Shown one piece after another: positions 10,221-64,000 of a DNA stretch of 64,000 nt (position 1 is its first letter; each line of letters starts with the position of its first letter). The position numbers and the translations under genes are program-made. The stretch covers positions 133-64,132 of the forward strand of contig JAZNUS010000037.1 in the NCBI GenBank assembly GCA_045592485.1, written 5' to 3'. Under the pieces are notes generated by a model. It saw only the letters and a list, made by a program, of their open reading frames with translations. It searched no databases and had not been told where the DNA came from. Source of the stretch: Clostridia bacterium (GTDB lineage: Bacteria; Bacillota; Clostridia; UMGS1810).

Positions 10221-10297
<77 letters not shown>

Positions 10298-11120: not shown

Positions 11121-11284
11121 CAAAAAGAAAAGCCCCGCCATACAGCGGGGCATAGTGCGCATAAAAACACCGTCTTTTCTCATCCGGACTGTACCGTCGG
11201 CTCCGGAATCACACCGGATCGACCGCAAAATGCGGTTAGCGGGCTTTTACCGCCGGTGGGGAATTGCACCCCGCCCCAAAGACA
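11121..11284 (-). promoter_or_regulatory. FMN riboswitch (RFN element) with terminator expression platform
   Basis: The minus strand reads GGGGCGGGGTGCAATTCCCCACCGGCGGTAAAAGCCCGC...GATCCGGTGTGATTCCGGAGCCGACGGTACAGTCCGGATGAGAAAAGAC. This is followed by hairpin GCCCCGC/GCGGGGC (11132-11151) and a T-run. Confidence 0.9.
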
Positions 11285-11290
11285 ATTCAT

Positions 11291-52275: not shown

Positions 52276-52347
52276 GCGGGTGTAGTTCAATGGCTAGAAT
52301 CTCAGCCTTCCAAGCTGATTGTGTGGGTTCGATTCCCATCACCCGCT
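52276..52347 (+). tRNA. tRNA-Gly (anticodon UCC)
   Basis: Acceptor GCGGGTG/CACCCGC, anticodon loop CTTCCAA, T-loop TTCGATT. CCA is not encoded. Confidence 0.92.
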
Positions 52348-52362
52348 TCAATCTTTTTATTT

Positions 52363-52436
<74 letters not shown>

Positions 52437-52481
52437 CTCATCTTTCTTCAATCAGAATTAGCAAATAGGCTTACCACATAT

Positions 52482-52558
52482 GGTGGGTATAGTTCAGTTG
52501 GTAGAGCGCCAGATTGTGGTTCTGGATGTCACCGGTTCGAGTCCGGTTACCCACCCCA
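52482..52558 (+). tRNA. tRNA-His (anticodon GUG), with G-1 and encoded CCA
   Basis: An extra 5' G pairs with the discriminator C. Anticodon arm is CCAGA-TTGTGGT-TCTGG. Confidence 0.92.
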
Positions 52559-52572
52559 CTTTTTCTTAGCAT

Positions 52573-52646
52573 TGGGCTGTAGCCAAGTCGGTAAGGCACC
52601 AGATTTTGATTCTGGCATTTCGTAGGTTCGAGTCCTGCCAGCCCAG
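52573..52646 (+). tRNA. tRNA-Gln (anticodon UUG)
   Basis: Acceptor TGGGCTG/CAGCCCA and anticodon arm CCAGA-TTTTGAT-TCTGG. Confidence 0.92.
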
Positions 52647-52690
52647 TCCCTTTTGGGCAAAGGACAAGACCTTTTATATAAAACTAAATA

Positions 52691-52763
52691 CGGGCCATTA
52701 GCTCAGCCGGCAGAGCACTTGACTTTTAATCAAGGTGTCCGGAGTTCGAATCTCCGATGGCTC
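52691..52763 (+). tRNA. tRNA-Lys (anticodon UUU)
   Basis: Acceptor GGGCCAT/ATGGCTC, anticodon arm CTTGA-CTTTTAA-TCAAG, T-arm CGGAG-TTCGAAT-CTCCG. Confidence 0.93.
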
Positions 52764-52764
52764 A

Positions 52765-54282: not shown

Positions 54283-55305
54283 CTACTTTTTAACCTCTTT
54301 CCACGCCTCACACAGTTTTTCAAACGACCATGCGGCATTTGCAGGTGATGTGGACGGGAGGCAAACGGCATTTTTACCTGCTATGTCACGAATATATTTG
54401 TTATAATACTTCTCTGCAGTTTTTCCGTTAACATATATCCTGTCAATGCTACAACGGTTGAATATGACATTCAAATCATTTGCAACAACATTTCTTATTG
54501 ACGAATCAGAGCTTCCCTCAATCTCGCAAGATGCAATAACATCCCAAAGTGCAAGATTGTTTTTCAGAATAATTTCCTTTTTCTGCGCTGTTGTTTCGGG
54601 AACTTTTTCCCCAAAAATATTTGCAATCACCTTCCAGAAACGGTTTTGAGGATGGCCGTAGAAAAACTTCTCTTCTCTTGATTTTACCGAAGGAAAGCTA
54701 CCAAGAATTAAAACATGAGAATCTTCGTTAAACAGAGGCAAAAAAGGGTGTGTTACTTTTTCATTTTCCAAAAGCTTTGCTGTTAAACCTTCAAAAATCC
54801 TCAGAAATTCATTTCTTACCTCTGCAAAGGGTTTTTCTTCAAACACAGGATTTGAGCAAATTTCGGGCTTTTTTGAAAGCTCTATGCCCATATAGTGATA
54901 AAACTCGTGGTACAAAAGGTCTTTGTCTATTCCATAGATTATTTCTTTTTCTTCGTCAGAAAAGCCGCCTGCATATTTTTCATAAATTACATCTATAAGG
55001 TTATCCTCATATTTTCTGTAATCCTCAAGATTATTTTTAACAGGTGTTGTCACATCGGACATATATGCTTCCGATGCATCGTGGAGAAGGCAGCCCAGAC
55101 AAATTTTTGAGCTTAGTCCTCTTGCGATTGCTTCGTTGGCGCATTCAATTGAATGCTGTGCCACTGAATGAAAAGACGGGAAATGACCGTTGGCTCTTGA
55201 AAGCATTGAAAGCGCATGGGCAATGTCTTTAATGTCGATATCAGCCGGGTTGGGATTCAAGGGATAGAACTGTTTTTTTGATACTGTGTAGATGTATTCT
55301 GCCAT
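54283..55305 (-). CDS. Fusion protein: N-terminal HD phosphohydrolase (YfbR-like nucleotidase) plus C-terminal UDG-superfamily hypoxanthine/deoxyinosine DNA glycosylase-like domain
   Basis: HD motifs are HSVAQHSIECA and LLHDASEAYMSDV. The C-terminal half has LILGSFPSVKSRE...FFYGHPQNRFW...LWDV. ATG is at 55305. Confidence 0.6.
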   Translation of the reverse strand: MAEYIYTVSKKQFYPLNPNPADIDIKDIAHALSMLSRANGHFPSFHSVAQHSIECANEAIARGLSSKICLGCLLHDASEAYMSDVTTPVKNNLEDYRKYEDNLIDVIYEKYAGGFSDEEKEIIYGIDKDLLYHEFYHYMGIELSKKPEICSNPVFEEKPFAEVRNEFLRIFEGLTAKLLENEKVTHPFLPLFNEDSHVLILGSFPSVKSREEKFFYGHPQNRFWKVIANIFGEKVPETTAQKKEIILKNNLALWDVIASCEIEGSSDSSIRNVVANDLNVIFNRCSIDRIYVNGKTAEKYYNKYIRDIAGKNAVCLPSTSPANAAWSFEKLCEAWKEVKK

Positions 55306-55307
55306 AA

Positions 55308-55832
55308 TCAATACCCCAGAATGTCGAGACGCATTGTAACTCCGAGCTGAAAAAAGGCTGTGATTGTTTTTCCCACATAGGCATTTGCTTCGGGGAGCTT
55401 GAAGTAGTCCTTCATTTTGACAACCCAGTTTTCATACATTTCTATCATAAAATTCTGAAAATCCTTTTTATCTGAATCGGAAGTCATTTCAAGAAGAACA
55501 AACACATTGTTCCACACACCGCCATCATAGATTTCGTCATACTTGATTTTGGAAAGGCGGTCTCCCCCATCTGCCCACGCATCCGCCGCAGAAAGTCCGA
55601 GACAGAAGCAGTTGACACAAAGTCCGAGATAGTAGCCAACCATATTGCCCTTGAAGGTTTCATAAAACTCCGAATCAGAAAGCCAGTCGGCAGAGTATTG
55701 AAAGCCTTTTTCAAGAAGCTCTTCAACCATGATGGCATCCTTGTCGGTATAGTCTTTTTCCATTGCCGCTCTGTGAAGCTCCACAAGAGTGGACTTAAAT
55801 AATTCGTTTGCAGTGTTCAAATTGTTTTCCAT
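55308..55832 (-). CDS. Hypothetical 174-aa protein
   Basis: ATG 55832 follows AAGGAAA. It is wedged with overlapping or adjacent stops between the LOG and HD genes. No motif recognised. Confidence 0.5.
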   Translation of the reverse strand: MENNLNTANELFKSTLVELHRAAMEKDYTDKDAIMVEELLEKGFQYSADWLSDSEFYETFKGNMVGYYLGLCVNCFCLGLSAADAWADGGDRLSKIKYDEIYDGGVWNNVFVLLEMTSDSDKKDFQNFMIEMYENWVVKMKDYFKLPEANAYVGKTITAFFQLGVTMRLDILGY

Positions 55833-56728: not shown

Positions 56729-57001
56729 TTATTTAACAGCGTCTTTTAAAGCTTTACCAACTTTGAAAGAAGGAACTGTTGTAGCGGGGATATCAATAAT
56801 AGCACCTGTCTGGGGGTTTTTACCCTTTCTTGCTGCACGTTTTTTGGTTTCAAAAGAACCAAAACCAACGAGAACAACTTTATCACCAGCTACGAGAGCT
56901 TCTGTTACGCCATCAACGAAAGCGTTTAATGCTTTCTCTGCGTCTTTCTTTGATAATTCTGCTTTGTCTGCTATTTTAGCAATTAATTCACTTTTGTTCA
57001 T
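56729..57001 (-). CDS. hup: Nucleoid protein HU
   Basis: 90 aa starting [11 protein letters not shown], with [21 protein letters not shown]. Confidence 0.95.
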
Positions 57002-57148
57002 TTTTACCTACTACCTCCTAAGATTTTTGGTCTAAAGTTATTATAACAGATAATTCCATTTGTTGCAAGTGAAAAAAGCAACAATTTTGTGGTAATATTG
57101 CATAAACTTAAATGCGTTTAATTGATGTAAATGTCAAAAAGATGGTTG

Positions 57149-57841
57149 TCAGTCAATTTCTTCCTCAGGATCATACATATTGTCATATACATACTCGCAC
57201 CCGTTTCTCGCTGAAAGCAGGAACAGGAAGGCTAAAATAGCCTCACATATAATGTTGAGAACCAGCGAATTTTCAACATTAAAATAATCCCAATACACAT
57301 ATGATGCTACTGTTTTAAGAGACGGGAATCCACAGAACAGCGAGTACAGTGATGCAGCCATACAAAACAATGCTACACCTTCAAATATCAAAGGAATATA
57401 TTCTATTTCTCCGACTTTTCTGTTGGGTATGATGTTACACTTTATAAACAACGAATTTAAAAAATTCATGGTTGCAACCAGTGCAAAATAAAATACATAT
57501 CCCATATTCCTGTCAAATCCAAGTAAAATAACGAAGGTAACCGAAGAGGCAATAAGCACAAAGGCTGAAGCCTTGAAAAACCATCCGTAGAAGGCTTTTG
57601 TAAAAAACATTCCAAAAAACCCAACAAGTAATGCTGTGGAGATAATCTGAGGAATGTACAGATACCACATATCAAAATACAATTCATCCTGCTCATTTAT
57701 CATAAAAATATACATAGTCAGATCCACCAGAAATTTCATAACGAATCCGATCATTCCCAGCATAACCAGAGTTGAAACTGTTTTTTTCTTTAATTGCACA
57801 GACATGGCATCACGCTGTATTTCGCTTCGGGGTTTAAGCAT
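57149..57841 (-). CDS. Hypothetical polytopic membrane protein
   Basis: 230 aa with about 6 TM segments. No recognisable motif, and the start is uncertain. Confidence 0.45.
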   Translation of the reverse strand: MLKPRSEIQRDAMSVQLKKKTVSTLVMLGMIGFVMKFLVDLTMYIFMINEQDELYFDMWYLYIPQIISTALLVGFFGMFFTKAFYGWFFKASAFVLIASSVTFVILLGFDRNMGYVFYFALVATMNFLNSLFIKCNIIPNRKVGEIEYIPLIFEGVALFCMAASLYSLFCGFPSLKTVASYVYWDYFNVENSLVLNIICEAILAFLFLLSARNGCEYVYDNMYDPEEEID

Positions 57842-57861
57842 TGTATATCACATCTTTCCAA

Positions 57862-59475
57862 TCATTCTATAATTTGATTTACATATATATTTTCAAAGGG
57901 GAAATTAATATCCACAAGCTCAATGCCGGTATTGACATCTGCATAGAATACATCGCCGCTTTTAAGGGTCTTTGAACCGACTGCATCGTTAGAACATTTG
58001 ATAATGTCTGAAAGCTTTGATGCTGCACCGCTGTCTTTCACAACAACCTTTACTCTTAATGTGTAGCCCTTTGTGGCTTTTGAAACAAGAGAGGGGTTAT
58101 CATAAATTTCAATGTTGGCACCCTTTGATTTTGCATAGGTTTTCCACTGGATAAACATTGTGTCGAAAATACTCTTGAAATTAGTCGCTTTTTTGAAGTT
58201 TTGTGCAGGTGTCTCTGCCATATCAACAAAGGATGTTTCATACACCTTTGAGGGGATTCCTTCAAGAATAATCCGATAGTCTGATGCATTTGCAGGATAT
58301 GCAGAAGGGTCTGTGTTCAGTCTGTAATCTACACTGTGGGAATTGTCTGCATAAACATTGCCTGTGAGGAAGCCTGAAATACCGTCAAATTCTATCATAA
58401 GACATGCAAGCTCTTTGAGGGTAATGTCTTTGTTAAAATCAATGACATCGCCGTGACGATTAAAGAGGATTCCGTTCTGATAGGCTCTTTTCAAAAGTGC
58501 TGTCTGCTGTTCGTTTGCAGGATTTGCATTTGCGTAGATGCCGCCGTTTGTATCAAATCTTATGGGAAGATGTGACGTTCTCTGAGTTGCAAACATAAGT
58601 GCCATAATGGCATCTTTAACAGTTGCATTTTTATCGGCAAATTCTATTGTGTCATTTTCCGCACCTGCATAGTAGCGGGAAATCATGTTAACTGCCATTG
58701 CGTAGGGATGTTCAAAGGATTTTGTGGCAGAAACGCCCTTGTAGTCAGGGCTAACGCAATCGGAAATGATGCGTGCTGCGGCATAGGCAAGCTCACCGTT
58801 TGTAACTGTCTGCTCGGGAGAATATGCCTTATCTACAAAACCGAATGCATTATATGCAGTTTCCAAAACCTTTGCATCAATTGAGTTTATGAAATCAATT
58901 TTTTCACTGGATTCATTAATCTGACGGGAACGGACAATAAGAGCTGCTGCTTCAGCTCTGGTGAGAGTATCGCCAAGACGAAGATTCAGATAATCGTCAC
59001 CGTTCATAATTTTGTAGGTATATACCCATGCAATTGCATCATAGTTAACGCCCTGACTGAAAATTACAGGCGGAGCTGTGAGTCCCTTTGGACTTCCTGC
59101 TCTTGTCCAGAGAAGGGTTGCAACCTCGCCTCTGGTGATGGGCTTTGAGGGTTCAAAAAACTCACTGCCTGTTTCAAAGCCGGAGGTCATAACATATTCA
59201 TATGCCCAGTGAGACTGATTCACATCAGCAAAATCTGAAGAGCGTCTTGTGGGACCGTTACCAATCATTTTAACAAATTCTGCTCTTGTAACAGTGCCGG
59301 CGGGTCTGAATGTTCCGTCTTCGAAGCCGTTGATGGTTCCGTCAGCCACGAGAGCGTTTACATAAGAAAATGCCCAGTGGTCACCGGAAAGATCGTGAAA
59401 AGATACGGCAAAAACATTTGTTGTTAATGTGAATACAAACGCAATTGTTAATAAAAGTGAAAGTAATCTTTTCAT
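57862..59475 (-). CDS. Secreted SLH-domain surface protein
   Basis: Signal peptide MKRLLSLLLTIAFVFTLTTNVFA. Three SLH-like repeats follow (FHDLSGDHWAFSYVNALV..., FADVNQSHWAYEYV..., ...AIAWVY...), then an approximately 350-aa unknown region. AAGGAG RBS. Confidence 0.75.
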   Translation of the reverse strand: MKRLLSLLLTIAFVFTLTTNVFAVSFHDLSGDHWAFSYVNALVADGTINGFEDGTFRPAGTVTRAEFVKMIGNGPTRRSSDFADVNQSHWAYEYVMTSGFETGSEFFEPSKPITRGEVATLLWTRAGSPKGLTAPPVIFSQGVNYDAIAWVYTYKIMNGDDYLNLRLGDTLTRAEAAALIVRSRQINESSEKIDFINSIDAKVLETAYNAFGFVDKAYSPEQTVTNGELAYAAARIISDCVSPDYKGVSATKSFEHPYAMAVNMISRYYAGAENDTIEFADKNATVKDAIMALMFATQRTSHLPIRFDTNGGIYANANPANEQQTALLKRAYQNGILFNRHGDVIDFNKDITLKELACLMIEFDGISGFLTGNVYADNSHSVDYRLNTDPSAYPANASDYRIILEGIPSKVYETSFVDMAETPAQNFKKATNFKSIFDTMFIQWKTYAKSKGANIEIYDNPSLVSKATKGYTLRVKVVVKDSGAASKLSDIIKCSNDAVGSKTLKSGDVFYADVNTGIELVDINFPFENIYVNQIIE

Positions 59476-59554
59476 TTTTATTTCTCCTTACTTTGTTTTA
59501 TTTTCCAAAATATATATAAATCTTTAACCTATAAATCTTTTGATTATTTAATAA

Positions 59555-60448
59555 TTAATCTTTGAAAATCTGTTCCCTGGCAGTGATTGCCGCATCAGCA
59601 TCCATGTTGCAGCTGAGGTTATATATGGGAACAGTTTTGCAAATCTTATTTATTGTTTCTGTAACATCGTCAAACATTTCTTTTGAAAGAGGCGAAACCA
59701 TTGCATCGAAAAACCTTTGGGCAACGGCAAAAAAGCTTGTCTTTTCAATGGTGTTTGTTTCTCCGCGGGACAAAAACACAATAGCCCTGAGAGGTACTGC
59801 TTCATTGGAGTTGATTCCTGTGGAGCCTGCCCACGGTGTTCCATAGAGCATAACCTTCCCATCGTGAAGTGCCCTTATGATGGGAGTGTCGTCATTGATA
59901 ACCCTTACTCCGTCAAACTCCTTTTGCCAGAGAGATGTATGAGTGGATTTACCTGTCCCTGATTTAGCAGAAAACACCACACCCTCACCGCCAAAAGAAA
60001 TGGCAGAGGAATGAAACACAATGCCATCAAACTTTCTTATTGCATAGTGCATTGCACTGTCAATAAGATTAACAACAAAGCATTCGTCAGATATGTCATA
60101 AAGCTTTGTAACATCATATTTTGTGATTGTAATTTTTGAATAGTTTTCACCGAATACTGTCGTTGCAAGAATAATTCCGCTTTTTTCGTCATAGTCGATA
60201 ACAACATCATTATTTTCCTGTTTGGAATAATATTTTCCGGGGCAGAGCTTTGTAACAGCCGAAAAATCATTGTCAATTTTTTCGTCGGATTTTGTGATGA
60301 CAAATTCAATATCGGGCTCACCTTCAAACTCAAACCTGTATGGGGCATGTGACAGTTCAAGATTTTCATCATAGTCCGATGTGACTGAAATTTTTAAATC
60401 TGCAATTATGTATTTACTTGTCATAATCACATAAGGACCACCTTTCAA
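59555..60448 (-). CDS. HPr-kinase-like P-loop protein of the type found in RiPP (lasso/ScmC-type) clusters
   Basis: 297 aa with FHSSAISFGGEGVVFSAKSGTGKSTHTS...NDDTP...GTPWAG. The true start may be GTG 60430 or ATG 60424. Confidence 0.55.
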   Translation of the reverse strand: MKGGPYVIMTSKYIIADLKISVTSDYDENLELSHAPYRFEFEGEPDIEFVITKSDEKIDNDFSAVTKLCPGKYYSKQENNDVVIDYDEKSGIILATTVFGENYSKITITKYDVTKLYDISDECFVVNLIDSAMHYAIRKFDGIVFHSSAISFGGEGVVFSAKSGTGKSTHTSLWQKEFDGVRVINDDTPIIRALHDGKVMLYGTPWAGSTGINSNEAVPLRAIVFLSRGETNTIEKTSFFAVAQRFFDAMVSPLSKEMFDDVTETINKICKTVPIYNLSCNMDADAAITAREQIFKD

Positions 60449-60534
60449 AAGAGTTCTGTCAGGACAGGGGAAGCTTCTTTATAATCCGATTGTGAAACTG
60501 CAGGGTTGCTATCTATCGATTTAACAGATTACTT

Positions 60535-60570
60535 AAAAAAAAGGTTGACTTGGTATGTCAACCTTTTTTT
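60535..60570 (-). terminator. Strong bidirectional terminator immediately after the 61-aa peptide gene
   Basis: AAAAAA AAGGTTGAC TTGGTAT GTCAACCTT TTTTT. Confidence 0.85.
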
Positions 60571-60590
60571 AATTATTAATAGTCGTTTAA

Positions 60591-60776
60591 TTAGCCCTGA
60601 ATCTGAGAAGTGTTGATTGATGTAAGATCATACACTGTAAGGGGAATGTCATCTCCGTATGTGCCATCTGCAGCACCAGCAACAGGAGCAGTTTTAATTC
60701 CTGTGGGGAGAGCAGCCATTGTTTCCTTAACAGAAAGTTCAACAACATTGATTTCGGGTTTTACATAGTTTTTCAT
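60591..60776 (-). CDS. 61-aa candidate RiPP precursor peptide with a lasso-type leader
   Basis: Strong RBS (GAGGAG, 8 nt, ATG). The leader-like N-terminus MKNYVKPEINVVELSVKETM carries YxxP and a Thr at -2. The 41-aa Gly/Ala/Thr/Asp-rich remainder has no Cys. Confidence 0.6.
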   Translation of the reverse strand: MKNYVKPEINVVELSVKETMAALPTGIKTAPVAGAADGTYGDDIPLTVYDLTSINTSQIQG

Positions 60777-60798
60777 TTCAATATCTCCTCTCTGTTAA

Positions 60799-61614
60799 TT
60801 AGTTATCAATTTCTGCATAGAAATCGTCTTCTGTCACTGTACCAATTTTTTCAGGAAGCTTAAGCTGTACAGCTGCTTTTCCGCCTTCTGCAGCAAGAGC
60901 AGGATAGAAATGATTCTCATAAATCATACCAATCTTACCAATAGCTTCACTCTTGTCACCTGTGAAGGTAATTACACAAGTAGCAAGATATGCATCATTA
61001 GCATCGTCAAATTCAACATACTTTGCAGAATCATTAATTACAACATCAGTCTGCTGAGGCTGAGTTTCAACAACAAGCACATCACCGATTTTGAGTTCTA
61101 CTGTACCTACAAAGTCAACCTGAGCTTCACCGTTGATTTTAACAGCGGTAATTTCATAGCCATCTTTAGCAACAATAGTAGCATTAGCTGTATCTTCAGA
61201 ACCTGTGATTGCTTTTGTGAATTCTACTGTGTAAGTTTCAGCATTATCATCACCAAATTTTGCAAGAGGAAGAACATCACTTCCGTCTGTGATAGGTGTA
61301 TCACCGTCTGTACCGAAGGTTGCTAATGTGCTGAGATTGACATCAAGTTTATCAACTGCAATTTTGTAGTTGAATGTTGCGCTACCAGTATTATCTGCTG
61401 TAGCCTGATCAATGTACACGATATTGTCATTGGACTTTACGAGGTATGTAACCTCTTTACCTGCTTCTGCTGTTCTAACAGTTTCTGAAACAACAACCTT
61501 GTTGTTAGCCAAATCATAAGTTGTAGTTGCTGCTGCAAAACCTGTCATAGCAGTCGCCATTACTGCAACTGCTGAAAGAGCTGCAAAAATAGCTTTTAAT
61601 TTTCTGCTTTTCAT
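60799..61614 (-). CDS. Secreted beta-rich protein of unknown function, co-transcribed with the peptide
   Basis: About 271 aa from MKSRKLKAIFAALSAVAVMATAMTGFAAA (signal peptide). The upstream part of the ORF-track frame lies 5' of the predicted promoter. Confidence 0.6.
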   Translation of the reverse strand: MKSRKLKAIFAALSAVAVMATAMTGFAAATTTYDLANNKVVVSETVRTAEAGKEVTYLVKSNDNIVYIDQATADNTGSATFNYKIAVDKLDVNLSTLATFGTDGDTPITDGSDVLPLAKFGDDNAETYTVEFTKAITGSEDTANATIVAKDGYEITAVKINGEAQVDFVGTVELKIGDVLVVETQPQQTDVVINDSAKYVEFDDANDAYLATCVITFTGDKSEAIGKIGMIYENHFYPALAAEGGKAAVQLKLPEKIGTVTEDDFYAEIDN

Positions 61615-61654
61615 TTTGACATACATCTCCTTATTCATGTTTTTCGTTACAGTC

Positions 61655-61683
61655 ATTTTACCAAATAAAATCAACATTGTCAA
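61655..61683 (-). promoter_or_regulatory. Near-consensus SigA promoter for the secreted-protein/peptide cassette
   Basis: On the minus strand: TTGACA, 17 nt, TAAAAT. Confidence 0.6.
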
Positions 61684-61779
61684 TAGTTTTATGAAATCTT
61701 TTAGTATAATTTTTTCACAATGAATTTGCCGACATTTTGTTATATTTGCACAATGCCCTTAAATACGGACCTTTTGAAA

Positions 61780-63462
61780 TTATTCGCAGATTATTTTCTT
61801 GTCACAAATTTTGAGCACCTTGTCGCTTGCTGCCAATGAGCCTTCCTTGTGCGAAATAATAATGCAGGTGCGGTCCTTTAGTGCGCGTATGTTTTCGAGA
61901 AGCTGTTTTTCGCATTCCTCATCAAGAGCTGAGGTCGCCTCGTCCAGAAGAAGCACATGGGCACCTGTGCAAATTGCTCTTGCTATGGCAAGTCTTTGAA
62001 TCTGCCCCTCCGAAAGACCGAGACCCCCTTCGCCAAGGACTGTGTTGTAGCCATTGGGAAGATTTTTTATCACTTCATCTATACACGCAACCTTTGCAGC
62101 ATTTTCCACTTCTTCATCGCTTATTCCGTCGGACATAAATCTTATGTTGTCACCGACAGTGCCCGAAAGAATCATATTCCCCTGAGGAACATAGGCAAAA
62201 AGACTTCTCGCCGAAGCGTCGGCACTATAGTCTTTGTCGCTGCATTTTATAAACACTCTGCCGTTGTCGGGTTCGAGTATGCCAAGGAGCATTTTCATAA
62301 AAGTGCTTTTCCCTATTCCCGAAATACCTGCAATTGCAGTGATTGAATTTTTTTCTATTGTAACAGAGGCTGAATCAAAGATTTTTTCAGAGTCAAATGA
62401 AAAACCGATGTCCTGTGCAACGATAGCCTCCATTGAAGCATAGACCTTTTCAGCATCGAAATCCCTGTTGGAATATTCTTCGTCGGGAAGCTCTTCTATT
62501 TCCATTATGCGCTCTGCCGATGCAGTCATTGCAAAAACCTGGGGAACAACTCCTGCCAGCTCACGGAAGGGAGTCTGAATCTGACCTACAAGCTGAATTA
62601 TGGCGGTGAATGTGCCAACGGTCATTATGCCTTTTGAAATTTTCACTGCACACCAGCCCACAGCGAAGTAATAGCCAATGGTCAGAAACACATAGAACAA
62701 AAGATTTGCAAAAATGCTGAAATAACCTTTTTTCATCACATATTTAAGATTAGTCTTCTGGAGTGCCTTAACCGAATCGGTAACTCTGTCATAGGCACCA
62801 AAGGATTTTACAACAAGAATGTTGCGGAGTGTTTCAAGAATAAAAGAATGGGTTTTCCCCTGTGATTCCAAAGCCTTTTTGTGAATGGGTTTCATAAAAC
62901 GGCTATATATGCGTGCAACAATCAGAACAAAGGGACCTATAATCAGAAATATGAGTGCAAAATCACTGTCAAGGGCATAGAGAGCTGAAAAACCGAGAAT
63001 TATTCTTGACACAAAGGCGAGAACATTGGGCACAATTGCCAGCACTCCCGAGGTGACAATCCCGGCATCGCCGTTAAGTCTGTTGAGAATGCCGCCCGTG
63101 TGGTAGGCTGATAAAGATTCCCACTTTTTGCCAAGGAGTTTTTTGTAAGTATTTCTTTGAATTCTGTGCTTGAATGCGGTTTCAGTGTTGATGTGAACCA
63201 GTGTGCTGACTGTCTGTATGACAAGCTGCACAATTACAAGCACAACAAGCTTTATGATACTGTCTTTCAAGCTGCCGGAGGTGCCGGTGTTTATTGCGGC
63301 ATCAAGAAGCTCCTTTGACACAAGTGCAAACCTTACCGAAATCCACGAAATACACATTGCACAAATCGCAACAAAAAATATTCTGAGATATACGGGACGG
63401 GCGACTTCAAGAAGCCACCTTACCGATTTGTATTTTTTTTCTTCCATTATATATACCCTCAT
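61780..63462 (-). CDS. ABC exporter, fused permease/ATPase
   Basis: 560 aa with 6 N-terminal TM segments, Walker A GISGIGKST, signature LSEGQ and Walker B LLLDEATSALD. ATGA overlap with the upstream peptidase gene. Confidence 0.88.
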   Translation of the reverse strand: MRVYIMEEKKYKSVRWLLEVARPVYLRIFFVAICAMCISWISVRFALVSKELLDAAINTGTSGSLKDSIIKLVVLVIVQLVIQTVSTLVHINTETAFKHRIQRNTYKKLLGKKWESLSAYHTGGILNRLNGDAGIVTSGVLAIVPNVLAFVSRIILGFSALYALDSDFALIFLIIGPFVLIVARIYSRFMKPIHKKALESQGKTHSFILETLRNILVVKSFGAYDRVTDSVKALQKTNLKYVMKKGYFSIFANLLFYVFLTIGYYFAVGWCAVKISKGIMTVGTFTAIIQLVGQIQTPFRELAGVVPQVFAMTASAERIMEIEELPDEEYSNRDFDAEKVYASMEAIVAQDIGFSFDSEKIFDSASVTIEKNSITAIAGISGIGKSTFMKMLLGILEPDNGRVFIKCSDKDYSADASARSLFAYVPQGNMILSGTVGDNIRFMSDGISDEEVENAAKVACIDEVIKNLPNGYNTVLGEGGLGLSEGQIQRLAIARAICTGAHVLLLDEATSALDEECEKQLLENIRALKDRTCIIISHKEGSLAASDKVLKICDKKIICE

Positions 63463-63929
63463 TTAAGAAACCTTCTGTATAATCTTGCCCCAAGTGTGAG
63501 AGTTTTTTTTGCAAAAGGTCTCACAGGAAATGCAAAAACCCAGAATGCGGTGTACAGTTTGTACCACAAAGCATTGACACTGTCTTCAGTACCCATTCGC
63601 ACAAAGGATTTCATAACTGCAAGACAATCTTCTTTTTTTACAGGATATTCCTTAACTGTTTCATTGTCGCCGGCAAATGTGAACAATCCGTTTTTTTTCT
63701 TTATTATACGGTGAAGCACAAACCTGCCGTCAGCTCTTTGGAAAAGAACCACATCGCCCTTTTTAAAGGATGATGCCGGAGACAGAGTCACCGTGTCTCT
63801 TTGGTCACGAAACAAGGGATACATACTGTTTCCTGTAACAGTGAGCCGGACACTCTTGCCATCCTTCAGTGCTGACTGAATGTAGGGAGCAATTTCGTTT
63901 ATGCTTGGTCTGAAATACTGTGCTACCAT
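63459..63929 (-). CDS. S24/S26-type Ser peptidase with SipW/ER-like Ser-His signature and no N-terminal anchor
   Basis: 156 aa with GNSMYPLF (Ser) and VLHRII (His where bacterial type I SPases have Lys). The only hydrophobic segment is C-terminal (LWYKLYTAFWVFAFPV). Confidence 0.6.
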   Translation of the reverse strand: MVAQYFRPSINEIAPYIQSALKDGKSVRLTVTGNSMYPLFRDQRDTVTLSPASSFKKGDVVLFQRADGRFVLHRIIKKKNGLFTFAGDNETVKEYPVKKEDCLAVMKSFVRMGTEDSVNALWYKLYTAFWVFAFPVRPFAKKTLTLGARLYRRFLK

Positions 63930-63931
63930 TA

Positions 63932-64000
63932 TTATTTCTCCAGTATGCCGTGTTCAAAGAGCAGGTCGGCAAATGCGTTTATATCAGCGGCAAGTTCTTC
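63932..64000 (-). CDS. 3' end of a gene truncated by the window edge (possibly a PqqD-like RRE protein)
   Basis: 23 codons ...EELAADINAFADLLFEHGILEK then stop, 2 nt before the peptidase start. The PqqD idea rests only on the tail resembling ...F(L/V)xxLxxxG(L/I)(L/I). Confidence 0.25.
   Translation of the reverse strand, partial: EELAADINAFADLLFEHGILEK

Follow-up and report, generated by a model that had tools for sequence, protein, structure and literature searches.

A Gene Cluster Probably of the Linear Polyphosphorylated Peptide Type at the Edge of a Clostridial Sequence Window

The gene block and its upstream limit

Toward the end of a 64,000-nucleotide stretch of contig JAZNUS010000037.1 from a Clostridia bacterium (the window, in whose numbering all positions are given here), the minus strand carries a block of genes (57149-64000) that includes a 61-residue peptide, a serine peptidase, an ATP-binding cassette (ABC) exporter and a P-loop protein. 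An initial annotation made from the letters alone had listed these genes and their transcription signals, all of which are present in the sequence, and had regarded the combination as one that fits no described class of RiPPs (peptides made on the ribosome and modified post-translationally). This latter view can be set aside, as the locus matches the family of linear polyphosphorylated peptides (LPPs) described in May 2026, from Bacilli only, by Popov et al. (Nat Commun 2026;17:6633, PMC13381572), and is a real, co-conserved variant of that family and not a new class. With the predicted mechanism set out below included, we consider a Clostridial form of an LPP-type RiPP cluster to be the probable identity of this region.

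The LPP family was found by way of the same archaeal-type signal peptidase that occurs here, and its clusters have the arrangement lppA-K-B-S-D-N in Paenibacillus alginolyticus DSM5050 and other Bacilli (PMC13381572). The precursor LppA carries the motif YxxPxVLxHQxIxFETxxS; LppK is an HprK-like kinase, LppB a discrete RiPP recognition element (RRE), LppS a SpI-like peptidase, LppD an MsbA-like exporter and LppN a nucleotidyltransferase of the NTP_transf_5 family. The class-defining, primary modification is installed by the kinase, and in B. subtilis LppK places one to four phosphates on Ser3 of the LppA core. LppS cuts after Thr(-1) and requires LppB to do so; its S29A, H68A and D93A mutants are inactive, residues Phe(-3), Glu(-2) and Thr(-1) of LppA are important to cleavage, and an AlphaFold3 model by the authors places Phe42 of LppS in contact with leader Phe(-3) (PMC13381572).

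In the direction of transcription, the block opens with the C-terminal 22 codons of a PqqD-type, LppB-like RRE gene (63932-64000), the remainder of which lies outside the window; these terminal 69 bases encode EELAADINAFADLLFEHGILEK*. There follows a gene for a SpI-like S26 serine peptidase of 156 aa (63459-63929), archaeal/ER-type and SipW-related, which we predict to be an LppS-like leader peptidase, and its TGA overlaps the ATG (as ATGA) of the gene for a half-size, MsbA-like ABC exporter of 560 aa (61780-63462). The latter is LppD-like, has the ABC_membrane and ABC_tran domains and finds MsbA (TIGR02203, 2e-70) as its best NCBIfam match. A near-consensus sigma-70-type promoter, recognized by sequence match at 61655-61683, then serves a secreted protein and the peptide; its elements (TTGACA-17-TAAAAT with a TG extension) agree with the consensus at 11 of 12 positions and form the best match in a scan across 57000-64000. 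The secreted protein, here called Sec271, is an accessory of 271 aa with a signal peptide and three beta-sandwich domains (60799-61614). The program-called open reading frame runs to 294 aa from a TTG, and because the promoter covers this TTG, which sits within the -35 box, the true start is taken to be the ATG at 61614. Next come the LppA-like precursor peptide of 61 aa (60591-60776), with the leader MKNYVKPEINVVELSVKET and a predicted core from Met20, and a bidirectional intrinsic terminator (60536-60570) formed of a 14-pair hairpin with A7 and T8 runs on its sides. Downstream lie a P-loop protein of the HprK-like/ScmC family, LppK-like (59555-60448, likely start at 60424), an SLH-domain, cell-wall-anchored protein (57862-59475; Pfam SLH, 6.7e-22) and a multi-pass membrane protein of 230 aa (57149-57841), with which the conserved block ends in the close clade; beyond it are the housekeeping genes for HU, LOG, PheRS, IleRS and pyruvate kinase.

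The view past base 64000 was obtained through synteny in relatives found by means of peptidase homologues. Once translated, the tail at the window edge shares 91% identity with the C-terminus of PqqD in one orthologous locus (L088) and 77% with that in another (L087), and the PqqD genes of the orthologous loci match Pfam PqqD at 1e-16 to 1e-18, such that the tentative reading of the tail as a PqqD-type RRE is borne out. Two relatives (L001 and L003) afford 10 kb of upstream flank, in which the housekeeping series ffh ... rplS, lepB, ylqF, rnhB, yraN gives way to an orphan gene of 340-360 aa, here called X350, and then to PqqD (88-95 aa), the peptidase, the ABC exporter, the secreted protein (270-300 aa), the peptide (54-61 aa), the ScmC-family protein, the SLH protein, the membrane protein, HU and LOG. 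Shorter syntenic contigs keep the X350-PqqD-peptidase-ABC core; these include the contigs of the closest relatives, L087 and L088, to which the window peptidase is 84% and 78% identical, respectively, and in which an unrelated, opposite-strand gene lies upstream of X350. Because of these syntenic flanks, we consider that the cluster has lost only some 1.3 kb at the window edge and that it is bounded.

These flanks bear directly on the suggestion that the block is a lasso-peptide cluster cut at the window edge, whose cyclase and B2 protease lie further upstream. Such a reading takes its appeal from the lasso-like YxxP leader, the PqqD RRE, the HprK-like protein and the ABC exporter, and from the report that about one third of Bacilli SpI genes adjoin lasso genes (PMC13381572). 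The initial annotation had called the cluster RiPP-like with lasso hallmarks, a description upheld by the leader and the RRE, and had remarked that a serine peptidase stands in the place of the B2 protease without a cyclase, which is likewise confirmed in the window and in the syntenic flanks. Its further suggestion, that a cyclase, radical SAM, YcaO or ATP-grasp gene might lie past 64000, did not survive: seven related loci show PqqD and one 350-aa orphan only, followed by unrelated genes that are either housekeeping or on the opposite strand, and no lasso cyclase, B2 protease, radical SAM, YcaO or ATP-grasp ligase occurs in the 10-kb flanks of L001 and L003 or the shorter flanks of L087 and L088. 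The housekeeping genes (rnhB, yraN, ylqF, lepB, rplS) directly past X350 in the former pair and the opposite-strand genes in the latter argue against it, as does the fact that the source contig has only 1,746 more bases than the window. Furthermore, the predicted core, at 41-42 residues, has no Asp or Glu at positions 7-9, whether it is read from Met20 or from Ala21 (its first Asp is at 17-18), and the peptide has no Sec signal; for these reasons it is not considered a lasso precursor. Given both the synteny and the core sequence, a cut-off lasso cluster is essentially excluded.

Conservation, precursor and processing enzymes

A peptidase-alignment scan with one genome per species yielded 55 Bacillota loci, in which partner genes were counted with purpose-built family hidden Markov models (HMMs). 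The loci derive mostly from metagenome-assembled genomes (MAGs) of Clostridia, Oscillospiraceae and Acutalibacteraceae from animal and human guts, together with two Paenibacillus genomes. Alphaproteobacterial peptidase matches (L062-L086) were left out of this set; considered as relatives, they turned out to form an S24 group that is unrelated and lacks all of the partner genes. Among loci that leave enough room, PqqD adjoins the peptidase in 47 of 54 and the ABC exporter does so in 37 of 45. The ScmC-family protein is found in 25 of the 55 loci, its gene being placed upstream of PqqD in one gene order and after the peptide in the other, whereas the other partners are confined to fewer loci: an SLH protein beside the cassette in 11 loci and several arrangements, Sec271 in eight, X350 in six and NTP_transf_5 in four (L025, L040, L052 and L057). 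The arrangement of the cluster is not due to chance. The outcomes that the initial annotation had named as fatal to its proposal did not materialize either, in that the upstream gene proved to be an RRE, the genes are conserved together, and peptide homologues keep these neighbors.

In approximately 18 loci (L013-L034, L033/L037/L041; e.g. L015:2026-4602) the PqqD-peptidase-ABC genes are flanked by genes for Wzz, a BY-kinase (AAA_31) and a CpsB phosphatase, which are sometimes joined by LCP or Polysacc_synt_2 genes, and the gene orders differ among loci.

Using a leader HMM, 26 peptides were found, 19 of them within the 55 species-level loci. All 26 share the leader MKxYxKPx[IVL]x[VI][VI]ELxxxE[TN][IMF]A, and the YxxPx[V/L/I] motif, which in the window peptide is Y4-V-K-P7-E-I9, is kept in every one. 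Most of the peptides continue with a variable middle, a conserved xTxYN[LM] and a short, usually Ser/Thr-rich tail; both Paenibacillus loci and an Oscillospiraceae locus (L058), on the other hand, combine the same leader with quite different cores and have no secreted-protein gene. A common leader on differing cores, travelling with an RRE, is the signature of a RiPP as far as sequence can tell. In the window peptide (Y4, P7, E18, T19) and in nine published LPP precursors that were checked, Glu and Thr stand 14 and 15 residues, respectively, after the Tyr, and from this identical register we predict cleavage after Thr19. The HQ pair of the LPP leader consensus is absent from the peptides of this clade.

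Two of the divergent cores deserve description in their own right. In Paenibacillus camelliae and P. doosanensis (L052:8619-8720 and L057:8578-8760), a peptide of 32-33 aa, (M)KK[EQ]YEKPQIEIEEYELT[DN]IC[FS]LSGGLGDGEDF, is encoded downstream of a two-component system and just upstream of ScmC-PqqD-peptidase(-ABC)-NTP_transf_5 genes, and represents a third core on this leader type, very short and acidic. The peptide of L058 (8669-8866), from an Oscillospiraceae MAG, has 65 aa, contains Cys and bears the same leader (MKRYEQPVLSVVDLRQEERIAAVIP...); it is encoded beside ScmC, peptidase and ABC genes, and the PqqD gene is displaced 2.6 kb upstream.

The peptidase, described at the outset as a Ser/His enzyme resembling S26 peptidases, lives up to that description. 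It matches Pfam Peptidase_S24 (1.9e-9), its best NCBIfam match is the archaeal-type signal peptidase I TIGR02228 (4.4e-10) with SipW next, and residues 12-136 align by BLASTP with LppS (WP_029196374.1, Supplementary Data 1 of Popov et al.) at 25% identity (E 8e-11). In this alignment Ser35 falls on LppS Ser29, His73 on His68, Asp88 of the GDN motif on Asp87 and Glu94 on Asp93; the last of these is a conservative change at an experimentally essential position, and all four residues are invariant among 40 peptidase homologues. Sequences of cluster 9 in the authors' sequence similarity network (SSN), from uncultured Ruminococcus, are 33% identical (3e-23). The peptidase has no N-terminal membrane anchor, its N-terminus being a polar helix, MVAQYFRPSINEIAPYIQSALKDGK, and its sole hydrophobic stretch is C-terminal. 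Thr48 aligns with LppS Phe42, the residue modelled against leader Phe(-3), and it may be that leader position -3 and this peptidase residue co-vary, Phe and Phe42 in LPP being replaced here by Lys or Arg and Thr48.

Kinship with SipW and the archaeal signal peptidases also invites the view that the locus processes surface proteins in the manner of tapA-sipW-tasA, with the peptidase trimming the signal peptide of Sec271 (perhaps also that of the SLH protein) and the 61-aa peptide acting as a structural or accessory partner. The signal peptide of Sec271 is indeed clear, one strong promoter drives the co-transcription of its gene with that of the peptide, and SLH and capsule-regulator genes are common neighbors. 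Against this stand the unanchored N-terminus of the peptidase (bona fide SipW, SSN cluster 2 of Popov et al., has an N-terminal anchor and no RRE), and the behavior of the characterized homologue LppS, which cuts a leader only when the RRE is present. Moreover, the PqqD-peptidase-ABC genes mostly occur without Sec271, given its count above, and the peptide itself, which lacks a Sec signal, carries a YxxP leader that is also found in cassettes devoid of Sec271 (e.g. L052, L057 and L058). We regard surface-protein processing as very unlikely.

The P-loop protein is 297 aa as an open reading frame and 289 aa from the Met common to its orthologues. Its NCBIfam matches are all weak (ScmC TIGR04249 at 1.6e-5, which is under the curated cut-off; HprK_rel_A at 1e-3; HPr(Ser) kinase at 0.07), and its orthologues bear the precomputed Pfam assignment ScmC (PF27840), in keeping with its original description as HPr-kinase-like. 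Across 16 homologues there is little or no variation in the Walker A sequence SGTGKST or in an NDD motif. One could suppose that this protein is no peptide kinase here and that the cluster performs a leader-guided export of an essentially unmodified linear peptide, bacteriocin-like or for signalling. Consistent with such export, the acceptor Ser3 of LppA is absent, the similarity to HPr kinase is weak, and loci of the L021/L024/L028 type have the peptide, PqqD, peptidase and ABC genes while no ScmC gene was detected within 10 kb. However, the Walker A and NDD motifs show strict or near-strict conservation, the ScmC gene stands beside the cassette in nearly half of the loci and in two gene orders, the proven LPP kinases are marked by the same TIGRFAM model (TIGR04249), and conserved Ser and Thr residues abound in the peptide tail. 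Export without modification thus appears rather unlikely. As a separate observation on the three loci just mentioned (e.g. L028:12528-16728), their peptide is encoded about 6 kb downstream of the ABC gene, and the interval codes for a pair of Cu_amine_oxidN1-domain proteins as well as a pair of secreted ones, of which one is cohesin-like in sequence.

Returning to the LPP-type reading, we propose that the cluster would operate as follows. The 61-aa peptide would be the precursor, and the discrete PqqD RRE would bind its YVKP...ET leader, as suggested by homology and by the co-occurrence of leader and cassette. By analogy with the characterized LppK, the HprK-like/ScmC P-loop protein would phosphorylate a Ser or Thr of the core. 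The RRE would then present the junction between leader and core to the Ser/His peptidase, a soluble enzyme of the SipW type, which is predicted to cut after Glu18-Thr19, the position being taken from the register shared with LppA, where the cut follows FET. The MsbA-like ABC protein would finally export a linear product; no macrocyclization is expected, because the cluster has no cyclase.

Several observations weigh against this assignment, or at least against too close an equation with the characterized LPP systems. With LppS the peptidase shares no more than 25% identity, and it is nearer to SSN cluster 4 (Anaerocolumna, 35% identity, 4e-28), a cluster that Popov et al. did not analyse, whose RRE they listed as 'other' and whose precursors they left undetermined. 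The orthologous RRE tells a similar story, being 42% identical to a Desulfosporosinus cluster-4 RRE that these authors class as 'RRE others'; pairwise, it shares 29% identity with LppB over 56 residues, and the figure for the lasso protein PbaB1 is 29% over 31 residues. Position -3 of the leader is Lys, Arg, Ala, Ser or Asn in this clade and not the Phe needed for LppA cleavage, and the third core residue, in LppA a Ser and the only shown phosphorylation site, is here Ala, Asn, Lys or similar but never Ser. Neither the window genes nor the syntenic loci gave a match to NTP_transf_5 (LppN; PF14907). The assignment of the P-loop protein as a putative kinase draws on weak profile matches and motifs, and a search of its profile against PDB sequences recovered no HPr kinase and only marginal PEP-carboxykinase P-loop matches.

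Accessory genes and a possible cell-surface role

X350 has no Pfam family. A search of 1.84 billion proteins returned 43 representatives, of about 340-360 aa save for a few shorter and probably partial ones, and no long proteins resembling rifampin phosphotransferase were among them; the gene upstream of the L087 PqqD is a member of the family (hhalign probability 99.9%). With a 37-sequence profile, X350 can be matched to rifampin phosphotransferase (PDB 5FBS) at E 1.7e-7 over two segments in collinear order, with residues 47-141 of X350 corresponding to 257-351 and residues 275-344 to 685-751. An AlphaFold2 (AF2) model built from six sequences is poor (pLDDT 63), and for this reason its top Foldseek match, again rifampin phosphotransferase (probability 0.99, TM-score 0.3), is taken as supportive only. 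Missing from X350 are the phosphohistidine swivel domain and, of the ATP-grasp domain, the N-terminal 250 residues, which makes a catalytic role doubtful. The possibility that X350 is a diverged NTP_transf_5 was considered and rejected (hhalign probability 0.1%).

Sec271, whose promoter and 271-aa length had both been recognized initially, is predicted by AF2 (pLDDT 86.5) to be all-beta with three beta-sandwich domains. It matches no Pfam or NCBIfam family, and Foldseek returned only generic Ig-, FN3- or lectin-like matches (E >1e-3); its candidacy as a TasA-like, cohesin-like or enzyme-like protein found no support from Pfam, NCBIfam or Foldseek. Its gene stands directly upstream of the peptide gene in all close loci, and the N-terminal domain of Sec271 recurs in different secreted proteins encoded ahead of the peptide in more distant loci. 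In the SLH protein, the SLH domains are N-terminal and give profile matches to those of S-layer proteins in the PDB, and the C-terminal region, of about 350 aa, is uncharacterized. The 230-aa membrane protein, which has no Pfam or NCBIfam match, is kept after the SLH gene in L001-L012. These four proteins are putative lineage-specific accessories that point to a role at the cell surface.

Because the precursor is co-expressed with Sec271 from a very strong promoter, and because the SLH protein, the membrane protein and the truncated, rifampin-phosphotransferase-like X350 are co-conserved with it, one may go further and suppose that the peptide is modified elsewhere than at position 3 (e.g. in the TxYNL segment or the Ser/Thr tail) and is exported as a component or primer of a cell-surface structure, which would link RiPP chemistry to envelope or capsule assembly. 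As a specific proposal we hold this to be unlikely. More broadly, the close association with genes for secreted and SLH-anchored proteins lends weight to the hypothesis that these peptides may act at the cell envelope.

Elsewhere in the window, and unrelated to the cluster, is an FMN riboswitch (11168-11287, minus strand, 120 bits). The window also contains a cluster of five tRNA genes (Gly-Arg-His-Gln-Lys; 52276-52764, plus strand), a lone tRNA-Arg gene (10221-10297, minus strand) and a gene for a 342-aa protein (54283-55311, minus strand), the C-terminal half of which is a uracil-DNA-glycosylase-superfamily domain and the N-terminal half of which has no family match.

Comparison with known systems

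Three known systems share individual elements with the cluster. The tapA-sipW-tasA operon of Bacillus subtilis has a peptidase of the same superfamily, with Ser/His, GDN and acidic motifs, and adjoins a gene for a secreted protein of about 270 aa; the window peptidase, however, is unanchored at its N-terminus and partnered with an RRE and an ABC exporter, and Sec271 is not TasA- or camelysin-like. The SynChlorMet (SCM) system (ScmC/ScmD, TIGR04249/TIGR04248) likewise pairs a ScmC-family P-loop protein with a PqqD-family partner, but where it has the radical SAM enzymes ScmE and ScmF, which are present neither in the window cluster nor in the syntenic loci, the present cluster has a signal-peptidase-like enzyme and an ABC exporter. 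Lasso clusters of the paeninodin type (padeCAKB1B2D; pseudomycoidin psm) come nearer, with a [Y/W]xxP leader to which a discrete B1 RRE binds, an ABC exporter, an HprK-like kinase acting on the precursor and a similar A-K-B1-protease-D order. Unlike these, the window cluster has no Asn-synthetase-like cyclase, no transglutaminase-type B2 protein and no ring-forming core Asp/Glu at 7-9, and a serine peptidase replaces the cysteine peptidase.

The differences from the LPP clusters are those of a variant. The window peptide fails the full motif YxxPxVLxHQxIxFET|xxS, having no HQ, Phe(-3) or Ser3; X350, the three-domain beta-sandwich protein, the SLH protein and the membrane protein are extra conserved genes; and the host belongs to an uncultured gut or rumen Clostridia lineage whereas LPP hosts are Bacilli. 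Should the LPP-type reading be correct, the logic of an RRE, a signal-peptidase-type leader peptidase, an HprK-like protein and an MsbA-like exporter would be widespread in uncultured gut and rumen Clostridia, in a form with a different precursor family, no NTP-transferase and accessory genes of its own. The locus gives candidate precursors for the peptidase and 'other RRE' groups whose precursors Popov et al. left undetermined, and it could afford a natural test of the co-variation of leader and peptidase specificity (Phe(-3) with LppS Phe42 as opposed to Lys/Arg with Thr48).

The likenesses to the LPP clusters extend from the enzymes to the genomic setting. The domain matrix of Popov et al. 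(Supplementary Data 2, PMC13381572) carries the labels TIGR02228, TIGR02203, TIGR04249, PqqD and NTP_transf_5, and the first three of these, which there mark SpI, MsbA and HprK, are the best TIGRFAMs of the three window enzymes. The core gene content and order correspond to lpp A, K, B, S, D. As in the LPP systems, a YxxP leader with E-T at 14 and 15 after the Tyr accompanies a discrete PqqD RRE in a cluster with no cyclase, and the leader peptidase is a soluble enzyme of the SipW/archaeal type in which the catalytic Ser and His are aligned. LPP clusters are also found in capsule neighborhoods of the Wzz/BY-kinase/CpsB/LCP type (PMC13381572), and relatives of the window cluster, too, lie in capsule and cell-envelope neighborhoods.

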